The notes under the pieces were generated by a model. The model saw only the letters and a program-made list of their open reading frames with translations, was not told the origin of the DNA and did not search any database. Shown piece by piece: positions 3,098 to 63,684 of a DNA stretch of 64,000 bases (positions are counted from its first letter, which is position 1; the number at the start of each line of letters is the position of its first letter). Location of the stretch: assembly GCA_009885205.1 (NCBI GenBank), contig VFLE01000055.1:11236-75235 (forward strand), written 5' to 3'. The position numbers and the translations under genes are program-made. This stretch comes from Candidatus Shapirobacteria bacterium. Lineage in GTDB: Bacteria; Patescibacteriota; Microgenomatia; UBA12405.

Positions 3098-3125
3098 GTA
3101 GAGACGCCCCGCGGGGCGTCTCTAC
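3098..3125. repeat. REP-like perfect palindrome, family A (GTAGAGACG-ccccgcgggg-CGTCTCTAC)
   Basis: 28-bp perfect inverted repeat, identical to the copy at 27732-27759. Confidence 0.9.
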
Positions 3126-3193
3126 AAAAAATCTCATTGGCAAATAATTATCAAGCTAAATTCTAGAACCTAAACAAAATACAAAATGTTAAA

Positions 3194-3272
3194 AGAGACG
3201 CCAAATTTGGTGTCTCTACAATGACACGAATATGCCGAATATTGGGGAATAAATGCATCGAAACAAACAATG
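3194..3272. repeat. Composite repeat: degenerate family-A palindrome + 21-nt linker + conserved 32-nt tail (copy 1 of 3)
   Basis: agagacgcc-aaattt-ggtgtctctac has one arm mismatch. It is followed by attggggaataaatgcatcgaaacaaacaatg. It abuts the uppP stop codon. Confidence 0.8.
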
Positions 3273-5251: not shown

Positions 5252-6172
5252 TTATTTGCTCCAGGAATAGCCTTTGTCTTTGAGCCAGGCATCGATAACT
5301 TTTAATGATTTTTCGCCAACATTTTTTGATTTGGAAACTTCACCGCGTCCAGCTTTGGTGAGACTATCGATATTGCCGAAACCAGCTTTCTTTAAAGCAT
5401 TGGTAACACGAAGAGGTAATTCGATTTCTTCGACGGAAATGTCAGATAAAAGACTGCCGGGGTTACTAGCAATAGTAATGACTTCGTCGCTAAATTCTTG
5501 GGTGTCAAAAATTTGACCAAGAGAATTAATTAAATCTTTGGCGGCAGATTTTAAGGCAACTTCGGGAGTGACTGAACCATCAGTCCAAACATCCATAGTT
5601 AATTTGTCGTAATTTGATTTTTTACCAAGGCGAGTGGGCTCAACTGTATAATTGGCTTTTAAAACTGGAGTAAAAGTAGCATCAAGAATAATTTCGCCAA
5701 CAACATCGGTTTTTTGTTCTTTGGCCATGGTGTAACCAACACCGCGTTCAACTTGAAGCTCGATTTTTAGTTTGGCTTTGTCGTCAGTTAGAGTAGCAAT
5801 AATTTGGTCGGGGTTAGCAACTTTGCAAGAAGTTGAATCGGCAATATCACCGGCGGTAATCACACCTTTACCTTTTTTATCCAAAACTAAGATAGTTGGA
5901 TCTTCTTGATTATAAGTAAATTTTACTTTTTTAAGATTTAGGGAAACTTCAACTAGATCTTCTTTGACTCCTGGTAGAGTGGTAAAAAGATGGGTAGCCC
6001 CGGCTATTTTAATCCGAGTAATGGCGGCTCCAGGAACAGTGATAAGTAAAACTCGACGGAGCGAATTGCCCAAAGTATGGCCAAAACCACCAAATAATGG
6101 ACTCATTTCAAACTGACCAAAAGTGGCAGTTGATTTAAGTGTTTTGAGATGAAAATGGCTGGTGTCAATCAT
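5252..6172 (-). CDS. rpoA: DNA-directed RNA polymerase alpha subunit (short, 306 aa)
   Basis: N-terminal-domain motifs (GHTLGNSLRRVLL) and a C-terminal-domain helix-hairpin-helix. It lies between rplQ and rpsD as in the alpha operon. Confidence 0.9.
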   Translation of the reverse strand: MIDTSHFHLKTLKSTATFGQFEMSPLFGGFGHTLGNSLRRVLLITVPGAAITRIKIAGATHLFTTLPGVKEDLVEVSLNLKKVKFTYNQEDPTILVLDKKGKGVITAGDIADSTSCKVANPDQIIATLTDDKAKLKIELQVERGVGYTMAKEQKTDVVGEIILDATFTPVLKANYTVEPTRLGKKSNYDKLTMDVWTDGSVTPEVALKSAAKDLINSLGQIFDTQEFSDEVITIASNPGSLLSDISVEEIELPLRVTNALKKAGFGNIDSLTKAGRGEVSKSKNVGEKSLKVIDAWLKDKGYSWSK

Positions 6173-9619: not shown

Positions 9620-9700
9620 GTAGAGACGCCATATATGGCGTCTCTACATGGAATCGAAAAGGCCGATTATTGGGGAGTAAACGCATCGAAACAAACATTG
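9620..9700. repeat. Composite repeat: family-A palindrome (core ccatatatgg) + 21-nt linker + conserved 32-nt tail (copy 2 of 3)
   Basis: Perfect 28-bp palindrome at 9620-9647, then attggggagtaaacgcatcgaaacaaacattg. It lies between secY and adk inside the r-protein operon. Confidence 0.85.
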
Positions 9701-27731: not shown

Positions 27732-27759
27732 GTAGAGACGCCCCGCGGGGCGTCTCTAC
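27732..27759. repeat. REP-like perfect palindrome, family A (core ccccgcgggg), identical to 3098-3125
   Basis: 28-bp perfect inverted repeat, upstream of the 26274..27641 gene. Confidence 0.9.
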
Positions 27760-42674: not shown

Positions 42675-43043
42675 TTATAAACTAATTGCCCGATTTAAGA
42701 TAATAGCAGCTGAAACTGAATCTAATTTTTTACTATTTTTGGGACGAATTTTACTAGCTTCGATGGTGGAAACGGCTTCTTCGACGGTTTCAATTGGAAT
42801 ATTGGTTGCTGTTTTTAATTTGTTGACAAAGGATTTTGTAACAAGAGCAAATTTGCCTTGAGACATGCCAACAAAAATTTTATTGATTTTATAATCGGTA
42901 ATTATTTTTTTTATTTGAATTATTAATTTATCATTGTTGTCGATTTGAGGGAGGGTAAAAATAATATTGTTGATAGTGTAGGCTAGACCGACTCGTTTGG
43001 TACCATAATCTAAGCTTAAGTAGTTCATATTAAAAATCGACAA
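42675..43043 (-). CDS. ruvX: Putative pre-16S rRNA nuclease / Holliday-junction resolvase-like YqgF (RuvX)
   Basis: 122 aa. LSLDYGTKRVGLAYT is the YqgF signature. Confidence 0.75.
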   Translation of the reverse strand: MSIFNMNYLSLDYGTKRVGLAYTINNIIFTLPQIDNNDKLIIQIKKIITDYKINKIFVGMSQGKFALVTKSFVNKLKTATNIPIETVEEAVSTIEASKIRPKNSKKLDSVSAAIILNRAISL

Positions 43044-43761
43044 TGCGGGCTTTAATAACTAAACGACGTAAATAGGTACCGGGCGGGGTACAAGTAATAA
43101 GGGTCAAATATCGACCATCAAAACGTTGTTCGAGGACAGATAGATCGGTAGGGGGGACTTCGTACATTTCTTCGACTAAATATTTATATTCAACGCTGTC
43201 GAAATTAATCAAGATTTCGTCACCTTGTTTTAATTTATATAAAGTAGAAAAAATAGTTAAATATGACTTGGGGTTAAAAAACTGAGGCAAAACGGAATGA
43301 CCAAAAATAACTGGCGAACCAAATTGACCAGGGAGGGCGGTTTGAGGATATTGGATGAGACTTTTTTTGAGATCTAAACTACCAACTTGGACCACGGCCG
43401 AGTCAATTTTTAGTTTGGGGACGGAAATTAAATATTCCGTTTTTGAGACAGTGGGATTTTGGGAAGAATTTTGTAAATTGTTTTGATCGTCAACAAACCA
43501 GTTTGACAATTGAGTAAAGTCGGTACCACTTTCACCTAAAATACTACCAGAATTGGCATATCGAGTAGAAAGAGGACTTAAGACTTGATTAAATTTGATT
43601 GAATATTCGATTTGATATTGTAAGATTGGTACAATGGCTGACAAAAAAAATAAAACACCAATAATTAAAAACGAAGAGGCAATTATTTTTTTGTGCTGAG
43701 GGGATAGCTTGGGTCGAGGTCGAGGAATTTTTACTTCCTTTTTGACATAAATATAGCCCAT
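43030..43761 (-). CDS. Sortase family transpeptidase
   Basis: 243 aa. N-terminal TM anchor, His in VIFGHSV, the catalytic TLITC motif and a downstream Arg (RRLVIKARI). Confidence 0.7.
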   Translation of the reverse strand: MGYIYVKKEVKIPRPRPKLSPQHKKIIASSFLIIGVLFFLSAIVPILQYQIEYSIKFNQVLSPLSTRYANSGSILGESGTDFTQLSNWFVDDQNNLQNSSQNPTVSKTEYLISVPKLKIDSAVVQVGSLDLKKSLIQYPQTALPGQFGSPVIFGHSVLPQFFNPKSYLTIFSTLYKLKQGDEILINFDSVEYKYLVEEMYEVPPTDLSVLEQRFDGRYLTLITCTPPGTYLRRLVIKARIVDF

Positions 43762-43762
43762 T

Positions 43763-45727
43763 TTAGTTTTTAATGATGATATTGATTAAGTTAGATTTGA
43801 CAGGTAATCGGTGAAGTAAATTAAAAAACCAAAGAGAATTGTTTAAATCATGTTGATAATATTTGGGTAAGGTATTTAAAATTGATTTTAGATCTGATTC
43901 TTTTTTACCGACTAACTTTAATTTGAGTTGATCAATATTTATCAAAGGATTAGCAACACCAGTTAAAGTTAGTTGACCAGAATTATAATTTAAAGTTACT
44001 TTAGCCGAATTTTTGTCTAAAAGAGTCAGACTCTCCCGCTTGGGGAAAAAAGTGGAAATTATATTTTGTTTTTGAAGTAAATCAAAATATAAAAAACTGA
44101 CCTTGGAAGAAAGTTGTAAAGATAAAACGTCGGCTTCTTCCCCAACTTCACGATTAAAAGTCGTTTTTTGATTTTCATAGACCATGGTTGAATCAAGAAT
44201 TGAATTTTCAGTTGATTTTTGGGAATTTATATCATTTTTGGCCTGTTGTTTTAACAATTCTTTGGCTGATTCTAAAACCTTGGTTTTGTCAGCTTGAGTG
44301 ACAACCGCGATTTGATCGCGAGTACCACCAGTAAAGGCTTTGGTTGACTTGGCCAATAAATTGGGGTCACTTTTGATGGTAAAAGCAATATTTTCTGATA
44401 AATTATATTCTGGCCCAATGATTTTAGCAGTCACGGCTGCCTTGACCTGACCCATAGTGATGATGCCAGTATCTAAATTAGAAGTACTGGCAGGGAGCAA
44501 AATGTTGTTGGTGGTTTCAAATTCTTTGCCAGAAGTATCGGTAATAACGAGGCCTTTGTTAACGGTAATTGATCGATCGAGTTTATTAAAAACGATGACT
44601 TCACCTTTGGCTTTTTCCCCGACTTCTTTTTTGCCAGTAGTAGAGGAAGAAGTACCGACACTTAAATCAAAAGTTTTGGTGGTGACATTGGAGGCAGGAT
44701 CTGGAGTAAAAGCAAAGATTTCGCTAAACTCGGTCGGGTTTTGATAGATGGTTAAATCGACCCTAGAAAAATAAAGCGGTAAAACCGGTAAAAATGGCAA
44801 TAAAACTAGGGGTAAAAGATAAATGTAGTTAAATTTTAATTTTGGAAAAGAAAAATTATGTAGGAACGCATCATGATGCGTTCCTACGTTTGAATTTTGA
44901 GGTGGCTCTTCGAGAACAGGATTGACTTCAACTGGTGAATCTTCTGCTGTAAATCCGAGAGAAGTGGCATCTATCTCTTCTGTGGTATCGGAAACAGGAA
45001 TAACATCGATGATGTTATTAGTAATTGAGGTGGCGGCGGGAGTAATTTGTTTTTTGACAGTATCGACAAAAATTTGGGCCAAAGATGAAGGATCAAGAGA
45101 AATAACATTGGGTAAGTGTAAAAATGTTTCTAAGTCTTGGCGAGCTAACCAGTTATAATTTTTTAAATCGTCAATAATTTCGGGGGAATAACTACCAATA
45201 ACAATTATTTTGGGTGGTAGGGCCGAGGTAAATTCAAGAGCTGATAATTGTTCTTCAAATTTGGAAACGGAAAAATCGGCCGAAAAATCGGCTGTAAATC
45301 GTTTTTTAATTTGACCTAAATAGACTAGAGAAAGATGATAATGTTTGGGACTAAAATAAACTAAAAGATAAGAACCGGGAAAAGAGTCATCATGATCATA
45401 AGATTCAATAAAAGCATCGTCATAACTAACAAAACCAAGGGGGTGGAATTTTAATTTTTGACAAATAGATTTGAGATTGGTTAGTATTTGGGGGGAAATA
45501 CTACCATCTGGTCCCACCCAATTTGGTGGAACAATAAAAGCACAATTTGAAGTTTCGTCATTATTTTGGGTAGAAATAGAGGTATCGATGGCTTTTAAAA
45601 GTGAGTCGGGGTTGTCAGAACTCCATTCTATTTCTTGACCAAGACTGATGATTTTATTGGAAACCAGAGAAACCTGAGCGGTATCAGATGTGATGGAAAT
45701 TAACCAATAAGCATTGTCGTGCATCAC
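43763..45727 (-). CDS. Hypothetical 654-aa ORF. An actin-like (PilM/FtsA-like?) N-region and a TM + extracytoplasmic C-region are joined through an in-frame REP-like palindrome, so it may be two genes.
   Basis: Residues around 280-290 (GTHHDAFLHNF) are the translation of palindrome 44860-44887. Immediately after comes a hydrophobic segment LKFNYIYLLPLVLLPFLPVLPLYF. There is no ATG between the palindrome and the TM. Confidence 0.4.
   Translation of the reverse strand: MMHDNAYWLISITSDTAQVSLVSNKIISLGQEIEWSSDNPDSLLKAIDTSISTQNNDETSNCAFIVPPNWVGPDGSISPQILTNLKSICQKLKFHPLGFVSYDDAFIESYDHDDSFPGSYLLVYFSPKHYHLSLVYLGQIKKRFTADFSADFSVSKFEEQLSALEFTSALPPKIIVIGSYSPEIIDDLKNYNWLARQDLETFLHLPNVISLDPSSLAQIFVDTVKKQITPAATSITNNIIDVIPVSDTTEEIDATSLGFTAEDSPVEVNPVLEEPPQNSNVGTHHDAFLHNFSFPKLKFNYIYLLPLVLLPFLPVLPLYFSRVDLTIYQNPTEFSEIFAFTPDPASNVTTKTFDLSVGTSSSTTGKKEVGEKAKGEVIVFNKLDRSITVNKGLVITDTSGKEFETTNNILLPASTSNLDTGIITMGQVKAAVTAKIIGPEYNLSENIAFTIKSDPNLLAKSTKAFTGGTRDQIAVVTQADKTKVLESAKELLKQQAKNDINSQKSTENSILDSTMVYENQKTTFNREVGEEADVLSLQLSSKVSFLYFDLLQKQNIISTFFPKRESLTLLDKNSAKVTLNYNSGQLTLTGVANPLINIDQLKLKLVGKKESDLKSILNTLPKYYQHDLNNSLWFFNLLHRLPVKSNLINIIIKN
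44860..44887. repeat. REP-like perfect palindrome, family B (GTAGGAAC-gcatcatgatgc-GTTCCTAC), inside an ORF
   Basis: 28-bp perfect inverted repeat. Confidence 0.9.
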
Positions 45728-47484
45728 TCTAGAATAGCATAAATTCGACGTTTTCCACTGCCTGCAGATTCTTGTTTTTGGATAGTGAATTTACCTAGTT
45801 CTTGCGTATTTTTAACGTGGGGACCAGTACAGACTTCGGCAGAGAAATCCCCCATTTGATAGACGGTGACAATTTCGGGGTATTTATTGCCAAAAAAAGC
45901 TAGAGCCCCTGATTTTTGGGCGTCGGTAAAAGGCATGGATTTTACTGTTACCTCCATTTTTTTGTTGATTTGTTGATTAACCAAATCGTTTACTTGTTTG
46001 ATTTGATCATCTGTCAATTTATCAGTATGGGTAAAATCAAAACGCATTCTATCACCAGTGATATTTGAACCGGACTGTTGGACATGGTTACCTAAAACTT
46101 GACGCAAACTTTGATGTAAAAGATGGGTAGCAGTATGATAACGAGTGATTACTTCGCTATGGTCAGCTAAACCGGATTTAAATTTCCCAGCGGATAATGT
46201 TCTTGATTCTTCTTGATGTTCAAGTCTTGCTTCCTCAAAAGATTTTTTAATTGCGTCGGGATCTAATAAAAGTTTTCCATTAATTTCTTCTAAAAACATC
46301 TCTAATGGAAAACCAAAACTTTCGTAGAAATAAAAGGCTTGTTTGCCAATATCACTATACTTGATATATTTTGGCTTACCTTCGATAATTTTACCTAATT
46401 CATTTTTGTATTTTTCAATTTCCTTTAAACCATTATTTAGAGTTTTTCTAAATTTATTTTCTTCAACTTCTAGAGTTTGTAATATTTTTTCTTTATTTTG
46501 ATTTAATTCAGAATAAATACCAGCATAGTTGTCTTGATTATCTAAAACTGATTGAGCAATAATTGAACAAAAATTAGTTTCAATGCCAATTAATTTACCT
46601 TGACGAATGGCGCGGCGAATAAGACGGCGCAAAACATAGCCACGTTCTTTATTGCTTGGCTCAATCCCATCAGCAATGATAAAAACAGCTGAACGAACAT
46701 GATCAGCTATTATTCTCATTGCTCGAGTTATTTGCTCGTCAGTACCATAACTTTTTCCTGATAAAAATTCAATTTTTTTGATAATTAGTTGCCAGATGGT
46801 GGACAAATAATTATCAGAGTGACCTTCAAGAAAAGCAGTGGTGCGTTCGACACCCATACCAGTATCGACATTAGGCTTGGCCAAAGGCTGATATTTACCA
46901 ACAGAATCTTTGTTAAATTGCATAAAAACATCGTTCCAAATTTCAACACCATCGATAAACATCTCCGAATCAGGACCACATGGACCGGTAACACCAGCTG
47001 GTCCCCACCAATTGTCATCCTTGGGCAAAAATTTTATTTTATCTTTAGGGATACCTATTTTTTCCCAGATTTTGGCACTATCAGTATCTTTTGGAGAATT
47101 GTTGTCACCCTCAAAACAGGTGACAACTAGACGGCTTTTATCTAAATTTAAATGTTTGGTAATAAATTCAAAACTCCAATTTAGTGCTTCATTTTTAAAA
47201 TAATCGCCAAGCGACCAGTTACCCAACATTTCAAAAAAAGTGTGGTGATAAGTGTCACCAACTGAATCGATGTCACCAGTACGAATACATTTTTGGACGT
47301 TGACCAAACGCTTGCCTAATGGGTGGGGTTGGCCCAATAGATAGGGAACTAAGGGATGCATACCAGCGGAAATAAAAAGAGTGGTGGGGTCGTTTTCGGG
47401 AACTAGAGAGGCCGAGGGAATTTCGGCATGACTTTTCCCCACAAAAAATTCAATATATTTGCTTTTTAATTCACGAGCGTTCAT
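45724..47484 (-). CDS. alaS: Alanyl-tRNA synthetase, short form (catalytic + editing domains, no C-Ala domain)
   Basis: 586 aa. A class-II core (FFVGKSHAEIPSASLVP..., WGPAGVTGPCGPDSE) and an editing-domain HxxxH (HTATHLLHQSL). Confidence 0.85.
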   Translation of the reverse strand: MNARELKSKYIEFFVGKSHAEIPSASLVPENDPTTLFISAGMHPLVPYLLGQPHPLGKRLVNVQKCIRTGDIDSVGDTYHHTFFEMLGNWSLGDYFKNEALNWSFEFITKHLNLDKSRLVVTCFEGDNNSPKDTDSAKIWEKIGIPKDKIKFLPKDDNWWGPAGVTGPCGPDSEMFIDGVEIWNDVFMQFNKDSVGKYQPLAKPNVDTGMGVERTTAFLEGHSDNYLSTIWQLIIKKIEFLSGKSYGTDEQITRAMRIIADHVRSAVFIIADGIEPSNKERGYVLRRLIRRAIRQGKLIGIETNFCSIIAQSVLDNQDNYAGIYSELNQNKEKILQTLEVEENKFRKTLNNGLKEIEKYKNELGKIIEGKPKYIKYSDIGKQAFYFYESFGFPLEMFLEEINGKLLLDPDAIKKSFEEARLEHQEESRTLSAGKFKSGLADHSEVITRYHTATHLLHQSLRQVLGNHVQQSGSNITGDRMRFDFTHTDKLTDDQIKQVNDLVNQQINKKMEVTVKSMPFTDAQKSGALAFFGNKYPEIVTVYQMGDFSAEVCTGPHVKNTQELGKFTIQKQESAGSGKRRIYAILE

Positions 47485-47511
47485 GGGAGAATTATAGCAA
47501 ATGATTTAATT

Positions 47512-47539
47512 GTAGAGACGTGATTAATCACGTCTCTAC
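47512..47539. repeat. REP-like palindrome, family A (core tgattaatca), identical to 63657-63684
   Basis: 28-bp perfect inverted repeat. Confidence 0.9.
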
Positions 47540-47565
47540 GAAAAAATAAAACAATTTTATGTATA

Positions 47566-47591
47566 AGGAACAGACACACAGGTCTGTTCCT
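47566..47591. repeat. REP-like palindrome, family B variant (AGGAACAGAC-acacag-GTCTGTTCCT)
   Basis: A 10-bp stem with a 6-nt loop. It is closely related to 62757-62782. Confidence 0.8.
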
Positions 47592-47710
47592 ACGTTTTTA
47601 ATCGTTTAAAAACTTTTTTAGATTTGATTACTTTTTTGGGTGTTAGATTTAGAGTTTCGACATCAGAGGGGATGGTGACGGATATTTTTTTGATTGGCTC
47701 AACAATGTTA

Positions 47711-47750
47711 GTAGAGACGTAGCGCGCTACGTCTCTACGCTTTTTTTTTA
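47711..47750 (+). terminator. Family-A palindrome (core tagcgcgcta) followed by T9: intrinsic-terminator architecture on the plus strand
   Basis: gtagagacgtagcgcgctacgtctctac + gcttttttttta. Confidence 0.5.
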
Positions 47751-47767
47751 TTATTTTTTTCGATTTT

Positions 47768-47795
47768 GTAGAGACGCCCCTAGGGGCGTCTCTAC
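47768..47795. repeat. REP-like palindrome, family A (core cccctagggg)
   Basis: 28-bp perfect inverted repeat. Confidence 0.9.
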
Positions 47796-48047
47796 TATTG
47801 TCTATTAATTTATCTGTTTCACCAAAAAAATCGTTAAATTTATTTTTTATTTTTTTGATAATTTTGGCTTTGTCCTCAGCCGATATTAAAACAACTGCAG
47901 AAGCGATGATGGCGCCAATTATTAATCCCATTATAAAAAGTGAATTGTTATTATTTTTACTATCATTACACATTTTTTGTATTTTATTTTAATTTAATTT
48001 CGATTTAACTTTCGCCTCGCCGGCGGGGCTATGATCATCGCACATAT

Positions 48048-48305
48048 TTAGTTGTCTTTTTTGGACTTGGAGAACGAATTAAATAGCTTAAAACCATTTT
48101 TGAAACCCATTAAAAAGTCGGAGGCGGAGGAGACGGGACGGGCGATGGAGGAGGAAATTAAATTAGCATCGTCAACTATAGGCGAAACTTGTTTTAACAA
48201 TTTGCGAAGATCTTGGATAAATTTGATTAAATAAACAAAACAAAAAACAATAGCAATAGTAATGATCGATAAACTAACAGCAATGATGGTTGAAGTAACA
48301 TCCAT
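48048..48305 (-). CDS. Small membrane protein (DUF948-like?)
   Basis: 85 aa with an N-terminal TM helix and a coiled C-terminus. This is a weak family call. Confidence 0.35.
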   Translation of the reverse strand: MDVTSTIIAVSLSIITIAIVFCFVYLIKFIQDLRKLLKQVSPIVDDANLISSSIARPVSSASDFLMGFKNGFKLFNSFSKSKKDN

Positions 48306-48335
48306 ATAAAATAGTTTACACTATATTTTAAATTT

Positions 48336-48926
48336 TTATCTAAGAATTTTTTCTTCAACAGTACTTTTACCAGCCGGAGAAGTGGACTGAACTACAATTT
48401 TGGCTTCAGAGGTAGATAATTCCATTTTTTTGGCAAAATTACCGTCTTGGTCGACGACAACTTGATCTTGATTTATGGTGACAGTTGATTCGATATTGGT
48501 AGTACCTTTGATTTCGACAATTTGACTATATTGAGGCCAATTGACAATTAGTTTTGGGGGGTGGTTAAATTTAACGTATTCAAAGATTAAATATGAGGCA
48601 AATAAAACAATAAGTAAGGCAATAACGACAGTATAGGTAAATTGAGGAGTAAAAGAAAAAAATGATGATTTATTGTTTTTATCACAAATTTTTTTGGCAT
48701 AATCTCGACGAAAAATTGAAATAATTTCGTTGGGGTTTAAACCTAAGAATGTAGCATATTCGCGAAGCATGAGGGAACAATAAGGCTCATCGGGAAAGTC
48801 ATTACTTTTCTCTAACTCAAAAGCCTGGAGATATTTGAATGGGATTTTGGTTTTTTTACTAATTTCATCGAGAGTATATTCGCGATCAAGACGAGTTGTC
48901 TCTAGTAAAAAAGAAGTGCGCTTCAT
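48336..48926 (-). CDS. RodZ-like protein (HTH + single TM + extracytoplasmic domain)
   Basis: 196 aa. An N-terminal XRE-type HTH (LDEISKKTKIPFKYLQAFE) and the TM helix VVIALLIVLFASYLIF. Confidence 0.55.
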   Translation of the reverse strand: MKRTSFLLETTRLDREYTLDEISKKTKIPFKYLQAFELEKSNDFPDEPYCSLMLREYATFLGLNPNEIISIFRRDYAKKICDKNNKSSFFSFTPQFTYTVVIALLIVLFASYLIFEYVKFNHPPKLIVNWPQYSQIVEIKGTTNIESTVTINQDQVVVDQDGNFAKKMELSTSEAKIVVQSTSPAGKSTVEEKILR

Positions 48927-56145: not shown

Positions 56146-56226
56146 GTAGAGACGCACCATGGTGCGTCTCTACAGGGATGCGAATATGCCTAATATTGGG
56201 GAATAAACGCAGCGAAACAATCATTG
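56146..56226. repeat. Composite repeat: family-A palindrome (core caccatggtg) + 21-nt linker + conserved 32-nt tail (copy 3 of 3)
   Basis: Perfect palindrome at 56146-56173, then attggggaataaacgcagcgaaacaatcattg. It lies between pnp and the lon-like gene. Confidence 0.85.
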
Positions 56227-56232
56227 AATATT

Positions 56233-56260
56233 GTAGGAACATGCCGCGGCATGTTCCTAC
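56233..56260. repeat. REP-like palindrome, family B (GTAGGAAC-atgccgcggcat-GTTCCTAC)
   Basis: 28-bp perfect inverted repeat, 7 nt after the composite repeat and 17 nt before the pnp stop. Confidence 0.9.
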
Positions 56261-62756: not shown

Positions 62757-62782
62757 AGGAACAGATACACGGATCTGTTCCT
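62757..62782. repeat. REP-like palindrome, family B variant (AGGAACAGAT-acacgg-ATCTGTTCCT), overlapping the dnaJ stop codon
   Basis: 10-bp stem with a 6-nt loop. It is closely related to 47566-47591. Confidence 0.8.
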
Positions 62783-63638
62783 ACAAACCCAATTCTTTGA
62801 TCAATTCTTTTTGATGTGTGGTTAATTTGGTGGGAATAAAAAGATTAAGGCGGATGTAAAGGTCACCTTTGCCAAAACCTTGGACATCGGTAATGCCGTG
62901 TCCACGAAGACGAATGAGGGTTCCGGGTTGAGTACCTGGTTTAATACGAATTTTAAGAGGTTTGTCTAAAGTAGGGACAGAAAGTTCGTCACCTAAAATA
63001 GCCTGAACTAGGGTAATATCTTGATTTATAAATAAATTATTTCCCTCACGGGTAAAAATTTTGTCAGGGAGAACATCGATATACAAAATAAAATCACCAA
63101 ATTTTATCCTCTGCCCATCATCAACCCCGGCAGGGATAGTAACTTTACGACGACTGCCATCTAAAACAATTTCTTTCTTACAGCCGTTGGCGGCATCAAT
63201 AAAAGACAATTGGATTTTGTAAGTAGGGACTTGTCGAGAACGAGATTGACCCATACCCCCGTTGCCGAAGAATTGTTCGAAAATATCAAAAGGATTACTA
63301 AAACCGCCAAAGTCAAAATCGTCTTGTCCCCCACCTTGACTACTTTGCCAAGTAAAGTTGAATGGTCCATTTTGTTGGGTGTGAGTGTGACCACCAAAAT
63401 TGCTACCGGCCGAGGATGGGTCAAAAGCGGCGTGGCCAAATTGGTCGTAGGCGGACTTTTTTTGAGGATTACTTAAAACCTCGTAGGCACCATTGATTTC
63501 TTTAAATTTTTCCTCGGCATCGGGGGCTTTATTGCGATCGGGGTGAAACTCCATGGCTTTTTTGCGATAAGCTGACTTAATATCCGCCGCCGATGCGCCT
63601 TTTGCTAATCCTAATGTATCGTAAAAATCTGGTTTCAT
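62781..63638 (-). CDS. dnaJ: DnaJ-family chaperone (J domain + G/F region + C-terminal substrate-binding domains, no Zn-finger; CbpA-like)
   Basis: 285 aa. J-domain HPD motif (MEFHPDRNK) and a Gly/Phe-rich linker. Confidence 0.85.
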   Translation of the reverse strand: MKPDFYDTLGLAKGASAADIKSAYRKKAMEFHPDRNKAPDAEEKFKEINGAYEVLSNPQKKSAYDQFGHAAFDPSSAGSNFGGHTHTQQNGPFNFTWQSSQGGGQDDFDFGGFSNPFDIFEQFFGNGGMGQSRSRQVPTYKIQLSFIDAANGCKKEIVLDGSRRKVTIPAGVDDGQRIKFGDFILYIDVLPDKIFTREGNNLFINQDITLVQAILGDELSVPTLDKPLKIRIKPGTQPGTLIRLRGHGITDVQGFGKGDLYIRLNLFIPTKLTTHQKELIKELGL

Positions 63639-63656
63639 TGATTATATATTTTACAG

Positions 63657-63684
63657 GTAGAGACGTGATTAATCACGTCTCTAC
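63657..63684. repeat. REP-like palindrome, family A (core tgattaatca), identical to 47512-47539
   Basis: 28-bp perfect inverted repeat between dnaK and dnaJ. Confidence 0.9.

Follow-up and report, generated by a model that had tools for sequence, protein, structure and literature searches.

Introduction

Rickettsia palindromic elements (RPEs), a classic case of selfish DNA inside coding genes and reportedly described by Ogata and colleagues in 2000, are palindromic repeats that lie in frame within functional genes, at sites where the protein structure tolerates them; RPE-1 is ~100–150 bp long and adds 30–50 residues to the encoded protein. The subject of the present study is a 28-bp palindrome at positions 44860–44887 of a 64,000-nucleotide stretch of DNA from a Candidatus Shapirobacteria bacterium (contig VFLE01000055.1), the whole of which is referred to as the window. 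It is a repetitive extragenic palindromic (REP) element and is located within the open reading frame (ORF) 43763..45727, which encodes a membrane protein. Like the RPEs, it is a palindromic repeat read in frame within a functional gene at a tolerant site, but there is no sequence similarity between the two types of element; short RPEs are tagged by CGTC (PMC3733652).

Closer counterparts are found among the GTAG-tagged REPs. In ‘double-foot’ REPs, the palindrome opens with a 5′ foot GT[AG]G and closes with a 3′ foot C[TC]AC; these repeats are tied to subclass 2.4 of the TnpA_REP transposases, or REP-associated tyrosine transposases (RAYTs), occur in Cyanobacteria, Bacteroidetes and scattered phyla, and have been reported to insert into genes with the reading frame left intact (Quentin et al. 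2018, PMC6006769). The repeats considered here have the same feet, a long perfect stem, a dispersed and mostly intergenic distribution and in-frame copies within genes, including RAYT genes; for the GAGAC arm type, the taxonomic spread is the same as well. They differ in that their host belongs to the Patescibacteria (candidate phyla radiation, CPR), in that the window holds no RAYT and in that the arm of the target copy is a GGAAC variant. In the GTAG-tagged REP superfamily, short GTAG palindromes mostly lie downstream of genes, some are contained entirely within ORFs, to which they add a few residues, and GTAG feet may provide TAG stop codons (Di Nocera et al. 2013, PMC3733652). All of these features recur in the window, where TAG stops from GTAG feet are seen at 47590 and 62781. 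CPR bacteria were outside that survey, however, and most of the GTAG-tagged REPs it describes are built with a loop and a single unpaired foot; the copies here, in contrast, are predominantly loop-less perfect 28-mers. In-frame double-foot REPs as such are an established phenomenon, and the novelty lies in the host lineage and in the site occupied here.

Host gene and its orthologs

The palindrome, GTAGGAACGCATCATGATGCGTTCCTAC, is perfect and consists of two 14-nt arms. The chance expectation for such palindromes is, by simple arithmetic, ~64,000/4^14 or ~2e-4 in 64 kb, and none of 100 dinucleotide-preserving shuffles of the window contained a match. That the palindrome is translated within ORF 43763..45727, as a preceding sequence-only reading had stated, is borne out: on the minus strand, the frame runs across it as GTA GGA ACG CAT CAT GAT GCG TTC CTA C and encodes VGTHHDAFL plus the first base of a histidine codon, corresponding to residues 281–290 in a protein that reads ...NSNVGTHHDAFLHNFSFPK... 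around this point. On either strand only one of the three frames is open; the two remaining ones run into TAG and TGA.

The host gene occupies 43763..45727 on the minus strand, with its stop codon at 43763–43765, and encodes a conserved membrane protein of 653 or 654 residues, as judged from the ORF list, 84 homologs, an alignment of 22 sequences and three syntenic loci from related species (L002, L243 and L245). The ATG at 45724, which overlaps the stop codon of alaS, is the likely start rather than the GTG at 45727, because the orthologs open with MHDN... or MQDN...; it yields the 653 residues of the corresponding database protein (P0001). The 84 homologs, retrieved from a large protein collection, comprise 601–811 residues, ~60 of them span 99–100% of the query, and those with names are from Candidatus Shapirobacteria and Patescibacteria. 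Without exception, the 83 homologs other than the protein itself are single proteins that lack the palindrome-coded peptide; the orthologs (630–730 residues) possess an equivalent linker and no palindrome. Both halves of the protein are conserved in the 22-sequence alignment, and the motifs that flank the insert, LGF..DSP.E just upstream and FPK..FNYYWLLP just downstream, share one frame across it. All three syntenic loci have the order proS-ftsK-HTH-small ORFs-alaS-X-sortase, where X denotes the host gene and HTH a helix-turn-helix gene, which in two of them extends through ruvX and yceG. X is one complete called gene in L002 and L245 and one gene cut by the contig end in L243. These sequence comparisons identify ORF 43763..45727 as one gene, and the membrane protein it encodes is conserved among Shapirobacteria and Microgenomates related to them.

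The sequence-only reading had preferred a different solution, namely two adjacent genes, one for a PilM-like cytoplasmic protein and one for a PilN/PilO-like single-pass membrane protein, joined by an intergenic palindrome that happens to be open in frame. The position of the palindrome exactly between two folded halves, the mostly intergenic location of the family copies and the terminator-like pattern in the palindrome would all suit such an arrangement. By the test that had been proposed along with it, it is nevertheless refuted, as the orthologs consist of one protein each, with an equivalent linker from which the palindrome is missing; the frame shared by the motifs on both sides and the conserved order alaS-X-sortase-ruvX point the same way, no ortholog needs a ribosome-binding site or a start codon at this position, and separate genes for a cytoplasmic ATPase-fold protein and a single-pass membrane partner are not what the host gene presents. 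Next to no probability is therefore left for two genes. Extremely improbable, too, is an assembly artefact, in which a metagenome assembler would have merged two contigs at a repeat common to both and thereby produced a spurious fusion. REPs do break assemblies: the contig of L245 opens inside a truncated REP (AGACGCAAGATCTTGCGTCT, positions 1–20), from which it appears that these palindromes probably interrupt short-read assemblies. However, both flanks of the target palindrome are, in the right order and frame, parts of one orthologous gene, and its centre sequence is unique in the window, so that no second copy was available for a mis-join.

Among the homologs, the insert seems to be confined to a single lineage. 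When all 84 proteins were scanned for peptides encodable by a GTAG[AG][GA]AC...CTAC palindrome in either open frame, a palindrome-coded linker peptide was found only in the window's own protein; one homolog (P0015) gave a further match, within its conserved ETFLHLP block, that was read as chance. The L243 ortholog, which is 64% identical and stems from the relative whose 127-residue REP-bearing protein (see below) is closest to that of the window, has a 9-residue gap opposite the insert, and no palindrome is present in the host genes of L002, L243 and L245. Within everything sampled, the insert is, by sequence, specific to the lineage of the window. At the level of bases, a comparison with empty sites, both for the host gene and for the first REP site of the gene encoding the 127-residue protein, met flanks too diverged to define a footprint. 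In codons, the insert amounts to ten in the host gene, and the gap at that first site to ten residues.

The surroundings of the host gene deserve mention in their own right. The tight operon alaS-X-sortase-ruvX (43030–47484 in the window) is conserved, and the sortase gene begins right at the stop codon of X; related genomes likewise pair the baseplate-J-like surface protein with a sortase. In L243 (6994–9088), the call for the FtsK homolog is split into two overlapping ORFs, with 461 and 252 residues, in place of one of ~700 residues, possibly due to a frameshift or an assembly error.

Host protein and linker

An AlphaFold2 model built on the alignment has a mean predicted local distance difference test (pLDDT) score of 75.6 and shows two confident segments, residues 1–229 and 323–654, that are connected by a poorly predicted linker and a membrane helix. 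The N-terminal cytoplasmic domain (residues 1–229; 45041..45727, minus strand) is predicted to adopt an actin-like ATPase (ASKHA) fold, with pLDDT ~70–84. It has no Pfam or NCBIfam match; Foldseek against the PDB retrieves PPX/GppA, PilM, BT_3980, EutJ, ParM and MreB with E ~1e-6 to 1e-5. On visual inspection, the invariant residues of the alignment include no obvious glycine-rich nucleotide-binding loop, alongside a fold match at E ~1e-6.

The linker (residues 230–301; 44825..45040, minus strand), which holds the palindrome, is hypervariable and predicted to be disordered. Its block means of pLDDT range from 27 to 36, and the lowest block, at 27, coincides exactly with residues 281–290. Among 22 orthologs, the linker varies widely in length and sequence and can for this reason be regarded as a tolerant site. 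It is followed by a transmembrane helix at approximately residues 302–320 (44768..44824, minus strand; IYLLPLVLLPFLPVLPLYF), in which the pattern LLP..LLP.LP is conserved in the alignment. The Kyte-Doolittle profile reaches its 19-residue maximum of 2.1 at residue ~301, in agreement with the hydrophobic segment that had been noticed just downstream of the palindrome.

The C-terminal domain (residues 323–654; 43766..44761, minus strand) is beta-rich and predicted with pLDDT 80–90. Foldseek matches it to phage and diffocin baseplate proteins (baseplate wedge) and to a GlxA barrel, and the Pfam family Baseplate_J (PF04865) aligns with E 5e-4 and 19.8 bits, which is below the cut-off of 21.1; PF04865 is present in three distant homologs of the host protein. 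The domain is accordingly described here as baseplate-J-like with a GlxA-type barrel, and the lysines that precede the helix would place it outside the cell.

The nearest known arrangement is the PilM-PilN pair of the type IV pilus alignment complex, in which a cytoplasmic actin-like domain is likewise tied to a single-pass membrane segment; PilM is indeed among the fold matches. Here, however, both parts reside in one polypeptide, and the outer domain is baseplate-J-like instead of PilN/PilO-like. The initial description of the N-terminal region as actin/PilM/FtsA-like consequently holds at the level of the ASKHA fold but not for PilM in particular, as the match is generic and PPX/GppA, EutJ, BT_3980 and ParM score equally, while the PilN/PilO-like label for the C-terminal region gives way to the Foldseek result and the sub-threshold Pfam match.

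REP family in the window and in other genomes

The ‘REP-like’ label originally given to the palindrome has proved apt. The window contains 13 dispersed copies in 64 kb, ten perfect 28-mers and three imperfect or single-foot ones, against a chance expectation of 0. The family shows the characteristics of double-foot GTAG REPs: a GTAG 5′ foot and a CTAC 3′ foot, a stable palindrome within 20–40 nt, and dispersed, mainly intergenic copies. All ten perfect 28-mers have GTAG...CTAC; the arm is GTAGAGACG in eight and GTAGGAAC in two. The 9-mer GTAGAGACG occurs in the window only inside these palindromes, which eliminates the idea of a single-arm uptake sequence.

Eight copies are intergenic, two overlap ORF ends and three lie inside ORFs. 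Since the window is ~94% coding, the low number of fully genic copies fits selection that removes most genic insertions. The perfect copies, to which no strand is assigned, comprise the target, two in-frame copies in the 127-residue ORF 47590..47973 (47768..47795 at site 1, read as RDAPRGVST, and 47711..47738 at site 2, read as RDVARYVST) and seven intergenic ones: 3098..3125 between convergent genes, 9620..9647, 27732..27759, 47512..47539 between the 127-residue ORF and alaS, 56146..56173, 56233..56260 and 63657..63684. The copies at 47512 and 63657 share the centre GTGATTAATCAC, and that at 56233 has the arm subtype of the target, GTAGGAAC. Three further copies are on the minus strand. At 3192..3219 a decayed intergenic REP has one stem mismatch and has lost one foot. 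The two single-foot REPs, 47566..47593 (GTAGGAACAGACCTGTGTGTCTGTTCCT) and 62757..62784, both read GTAGGAACAGAyC, a 6-nt loop and then GTTCCT, and their GTAG provides the TAG stop of the 127-residue ORF (at 47590) and of ORF 62781..63638 (at 62781), respectively. The first impression that all other copies are intergenic is thus corrected by the two in-frame copies in the 127-residue ORF and the two TAG stops at ORF ends.

ORF 47590..47973 (minus strand) encodes a conserved lysine-rich membrane-anchored protein of 127 residues. Nine homologs exist in related genomes, and its syntenic position is the same in L002, L243 and L245; orthologs are found at L002 5024–5458 and L243 10001–10399. Among ten orthologs, site 1 is occupied by a REP in 3/10 and site 2 in 6/10. 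At orthologous sites, the arms are identical between species and, where copies differ, the centres are wholly different: at site 1, the window has the centre GCCCCTAGGGGC, as opposed to GTGATTAATCAC in both L243 and L002, whereas at site 2 the REP of the window equals that of L243 and differs from that of L002. Of the five copies at these sites in the related loci, four have a perfectly palindromic centre, and that of L245 has one stem mismatch. The pattern suggests, as far as the sequences go, that the centre is replaced or converted in place and does not change by point mutation.

Beyond the window, one genome per species was scanned for the pattern GTAGAGACG-N10-CGTCTCTAC, which covers the GAGAC arm and not the arm of the target, GTAGGAACG. 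At least 120 stretches match, in Bacteroidota, Cyanobacteria, Chloroflexi, Acidobacteria, Planctomycetes and other phyla. Among the matches listed, 88/128 copies are perfectly palindromic through the centre; of the copies in the fetched cross-phylum loci 89/127 are perfectly symmetric, and in the remaining fetched loci nearly all are. Even the innermost base pair is still complementary in ~86% of the family copies (window and L003–L242). Such symmetry of the loop bases is not required by hairpin stability alone. In the fetched loci, 23/127 and 41/142 copies are located in frames free of stop codons over 50 or more codons to either side. The centre of the target, CATCATGATG, recurs with GAGAC arms in L141, where a MiaA-like protein contains two in-frame REPs (5297–5324 and 5521–5548), one of which, VETHHDVSLL, has this centre. 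Two orthologous multi-pass membrane proteins (L125 2677–2704 and L138 3825–3852) carry a REP at the same loop position.

The GAGAC-arm palindrome is associated with RAYT-like transposase genes. RAYT-like ORFs (MPNHxH ... WQ ... YIxNNP) carry or adjoin it in L014, L015, L056 and L073, and the motifs MPNH[IV]H, WQ and YIxNNP are present in the transposases next to GAGAC-arm copies. A metagenome scan for the centre variant GTGATTAATCAC of the window yielded 120 low-GC loci, with RAYT-like ORFs at 14 of them. RAYT-type genes with an in-frame GTAGAGACGTGATTAATCACGTCTCTAC were found in L180 (3286–3861), L208 (8637–9209), L151, L172, L173, L183, L185, L213 and L224; the repeat reads RDVINHVST or RDMINHVST, L172 being a one-base variant, and lies in the stretch that separates the HuH motif of the gene from its Y motif. 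KKP60240.1 of Candidatus Roizmanbacteria has exactly the sequence of one of these proteins, and many close homologs are named ‘REP element-mobilizing transposase RayT’ or come from Patescibacteria. A recognisable REP-coded peptide is present in 56/120 RAYT homologs. Pfam Y1_Tnp, which together with NCBIfam REP_Tyr_transpos ranks first among the family matches, scores 29.8 bits for L180, above the cut-off of 23, and 20 bits for L208. The locus L208 also shares homologs of two adjacent genes with the window. A literature search by the palindrome sequence string returned only primers and unrelated matches, and one for RAYT together with Patescibacteria only spurious matches and no REP/RAYT paper on the group. 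Rfam, searched with 43000–48500 at E up to 1, gave no match.

Origin of the insert

Taken together, the host gene is single, and a copy of the dispersed double-foot REP family was likely fixed in its linker DNA in one lineage as a neutral passenger. Insertion of a hairpin element in frame into a tolerated linker had been the second choice of the sequence-only reading, and it is this alternative that the orthologs, the gap opposite the insert and the low-pLDDT linker support. A tyrosine (HUH-Y1) transposase of the RAYT/TnpA_REP type, whose gene lies at another place in the genome or has since been lost, would have delivered the REP by cutting and joining single-stranded DNA, and the copy would then have been fixed, in this lineage only, ~ten residues before the membrane helix; selection may subsequently have cleared copies from the ~94% coding window except at tolerant sites. 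The insert survives because it is read in the one frame of three that has no stop codon, and because the net change is a multiple of three, 28 + 2 bases making ten codons in a segment free of structural constraint. Most likely, the resulting decapeptide is a passenger and has no function.

The flanks of the repeats provide some information on the mode of insertion. HUH-type insertion is not expected to produce a target-site duplication. Direct repeats of 1–3 nt around 221 non-redundant copies from the window and the loci are at chance level, which leaves a duplicated TA as the source of the two additional bases unsupported. The base at −1, outside the foot, is T in 51–59% of the copies compared to 25–40% in the background (two large locus sets); a pyrimidine stands just outside the foot in ~75%, and in approximately a third of the copies the palindrome is one base longer. 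The lack of a target-site duplication and the preference for T at −1 indirectly support a RAYT-type arrival.

Several observations weigh against this picture. No empty-site allele from a close relative is in the data, the nearest ortholog being 68–70% identical. As 28 is not a multiple of 3, more than a clean 28-bp insertion must have happened; the mobile unit may measure 30 nt, or small compensating changes may have taken place around the 28-mer. The arm of the target, GTAGGAAC, is rarer than GTAGAGAC and found in two double-foot and two single-foot copies of the window. A search with a RAYT profile (hmmsearch), in which the positive controls were found, revealed no RAYT in the 64-kb window or the three syntenic loci, and a cognate transposase in this genome is consequently putative. 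Finally, for the RAYTs of the other loci, the best NCBIfam match, REP_Tyr_transpos (NF047646), reaches 50–54 bits relative to an equivalog cut-off of 80.

Instead of being a passenger, the REP might have been co-opted. Its hairpin and the following U-tract could terminate part of the transcripts within the gene, cause pausing or attract an RNase, and thus set how much N-domain-only product is made relative to the full-length one; or the membrane-adjacent His-rich decapeptide could have a role. The hairpin, of 12 predicted pairs, appears stable (its region folds at −21.5 kcal/mol, z −5.8), and a terminator-like pattern matches the palindrome on both strands, in the sense orientation with the hairpin followed by ATAATTTTTC; moreover, the in-frame REPs kept at orthologous sites of the 127-residue ORF imply that genic REPs can be long-lived. 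However, the U-tract ATAATTTTTC is interrupted and offset from the stem, and the site is mid-gene with a conserved in-frame continuation on its 3′ side. As all other homologs examined lack the insert, it has no conserved function for the gene family; elements of the same type are found in many unrelated proteins, and published analyses of REPs argue against functional constraint (PMC3733652). Co-option is accordingly improbable; a side effect on the mRNA is conceivable, given a strong hairpin and then a U-rich tract.

About as little likelihood attaches to an origin of the palindrome in place, by template switching, fold-back synthesis or RAYT-free copying of another REP. Such a process would suit a window without RAYT, the orthologous sites of the 127-residue ORF with the same arms and wholly different yet symmetric centres, the extension of symmetry to the loop positions, and a frame that 28 bases alone do not keep. 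Yet the arms match the dispersed family, and the GAGAC arm type is found across phyla and carried or adjoined by RAYT genes; it is very unlikely that 9-nt arms equal to the family consensus would arise independently at this locus, and conversion still requires an earlier REP at the site.

A variant of the transposition model, itself rather unlikely, goes one step further than the fixation of a dispersed REP as a passenger: each double-foot REP may move as a 30-nt unit (pyrimidine, 28-mer, purine) that leaves the frame unaffected, and a RAYT would cut both feet and swap the symmetric centre between copies as a cassette. This would explain why arms are kept through speciation while the centre is replaced wholesale, why the loop positions are palindromic, and why approximately a fifth to a quarter of the copies reside inside genes, even in tiny CPR genomes.

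Concluding remarks

For annotation, the consequence is to keep the host gene as one ORF and to flag ten of its residues as REP-encoded; neither a fusion nor a frameshift nor a domain boundary should be annotated there. More interesting than the target copy is the behaviour of the family: conserved arms, swapped symmetric centres and in-frame persistence in very small genomes. With a main arm type that many phyla have in common and with RAYT genes as companions, the REP family is active or long-lived in Patescibacteria, whose genomes are very small; there it decorates several proteins in frame and donates stop codons. In-frame REPs offer a simple marker of recent insertions into disordered loops, and the family constitutes a natural data set on how perfect palindromes are placed and maintained by RAYT-type enzymes. 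If the 30-nt cassette model is true, loops and linkers of CPR proteins would be steadily supplied with ten-residue insertions by these elements.

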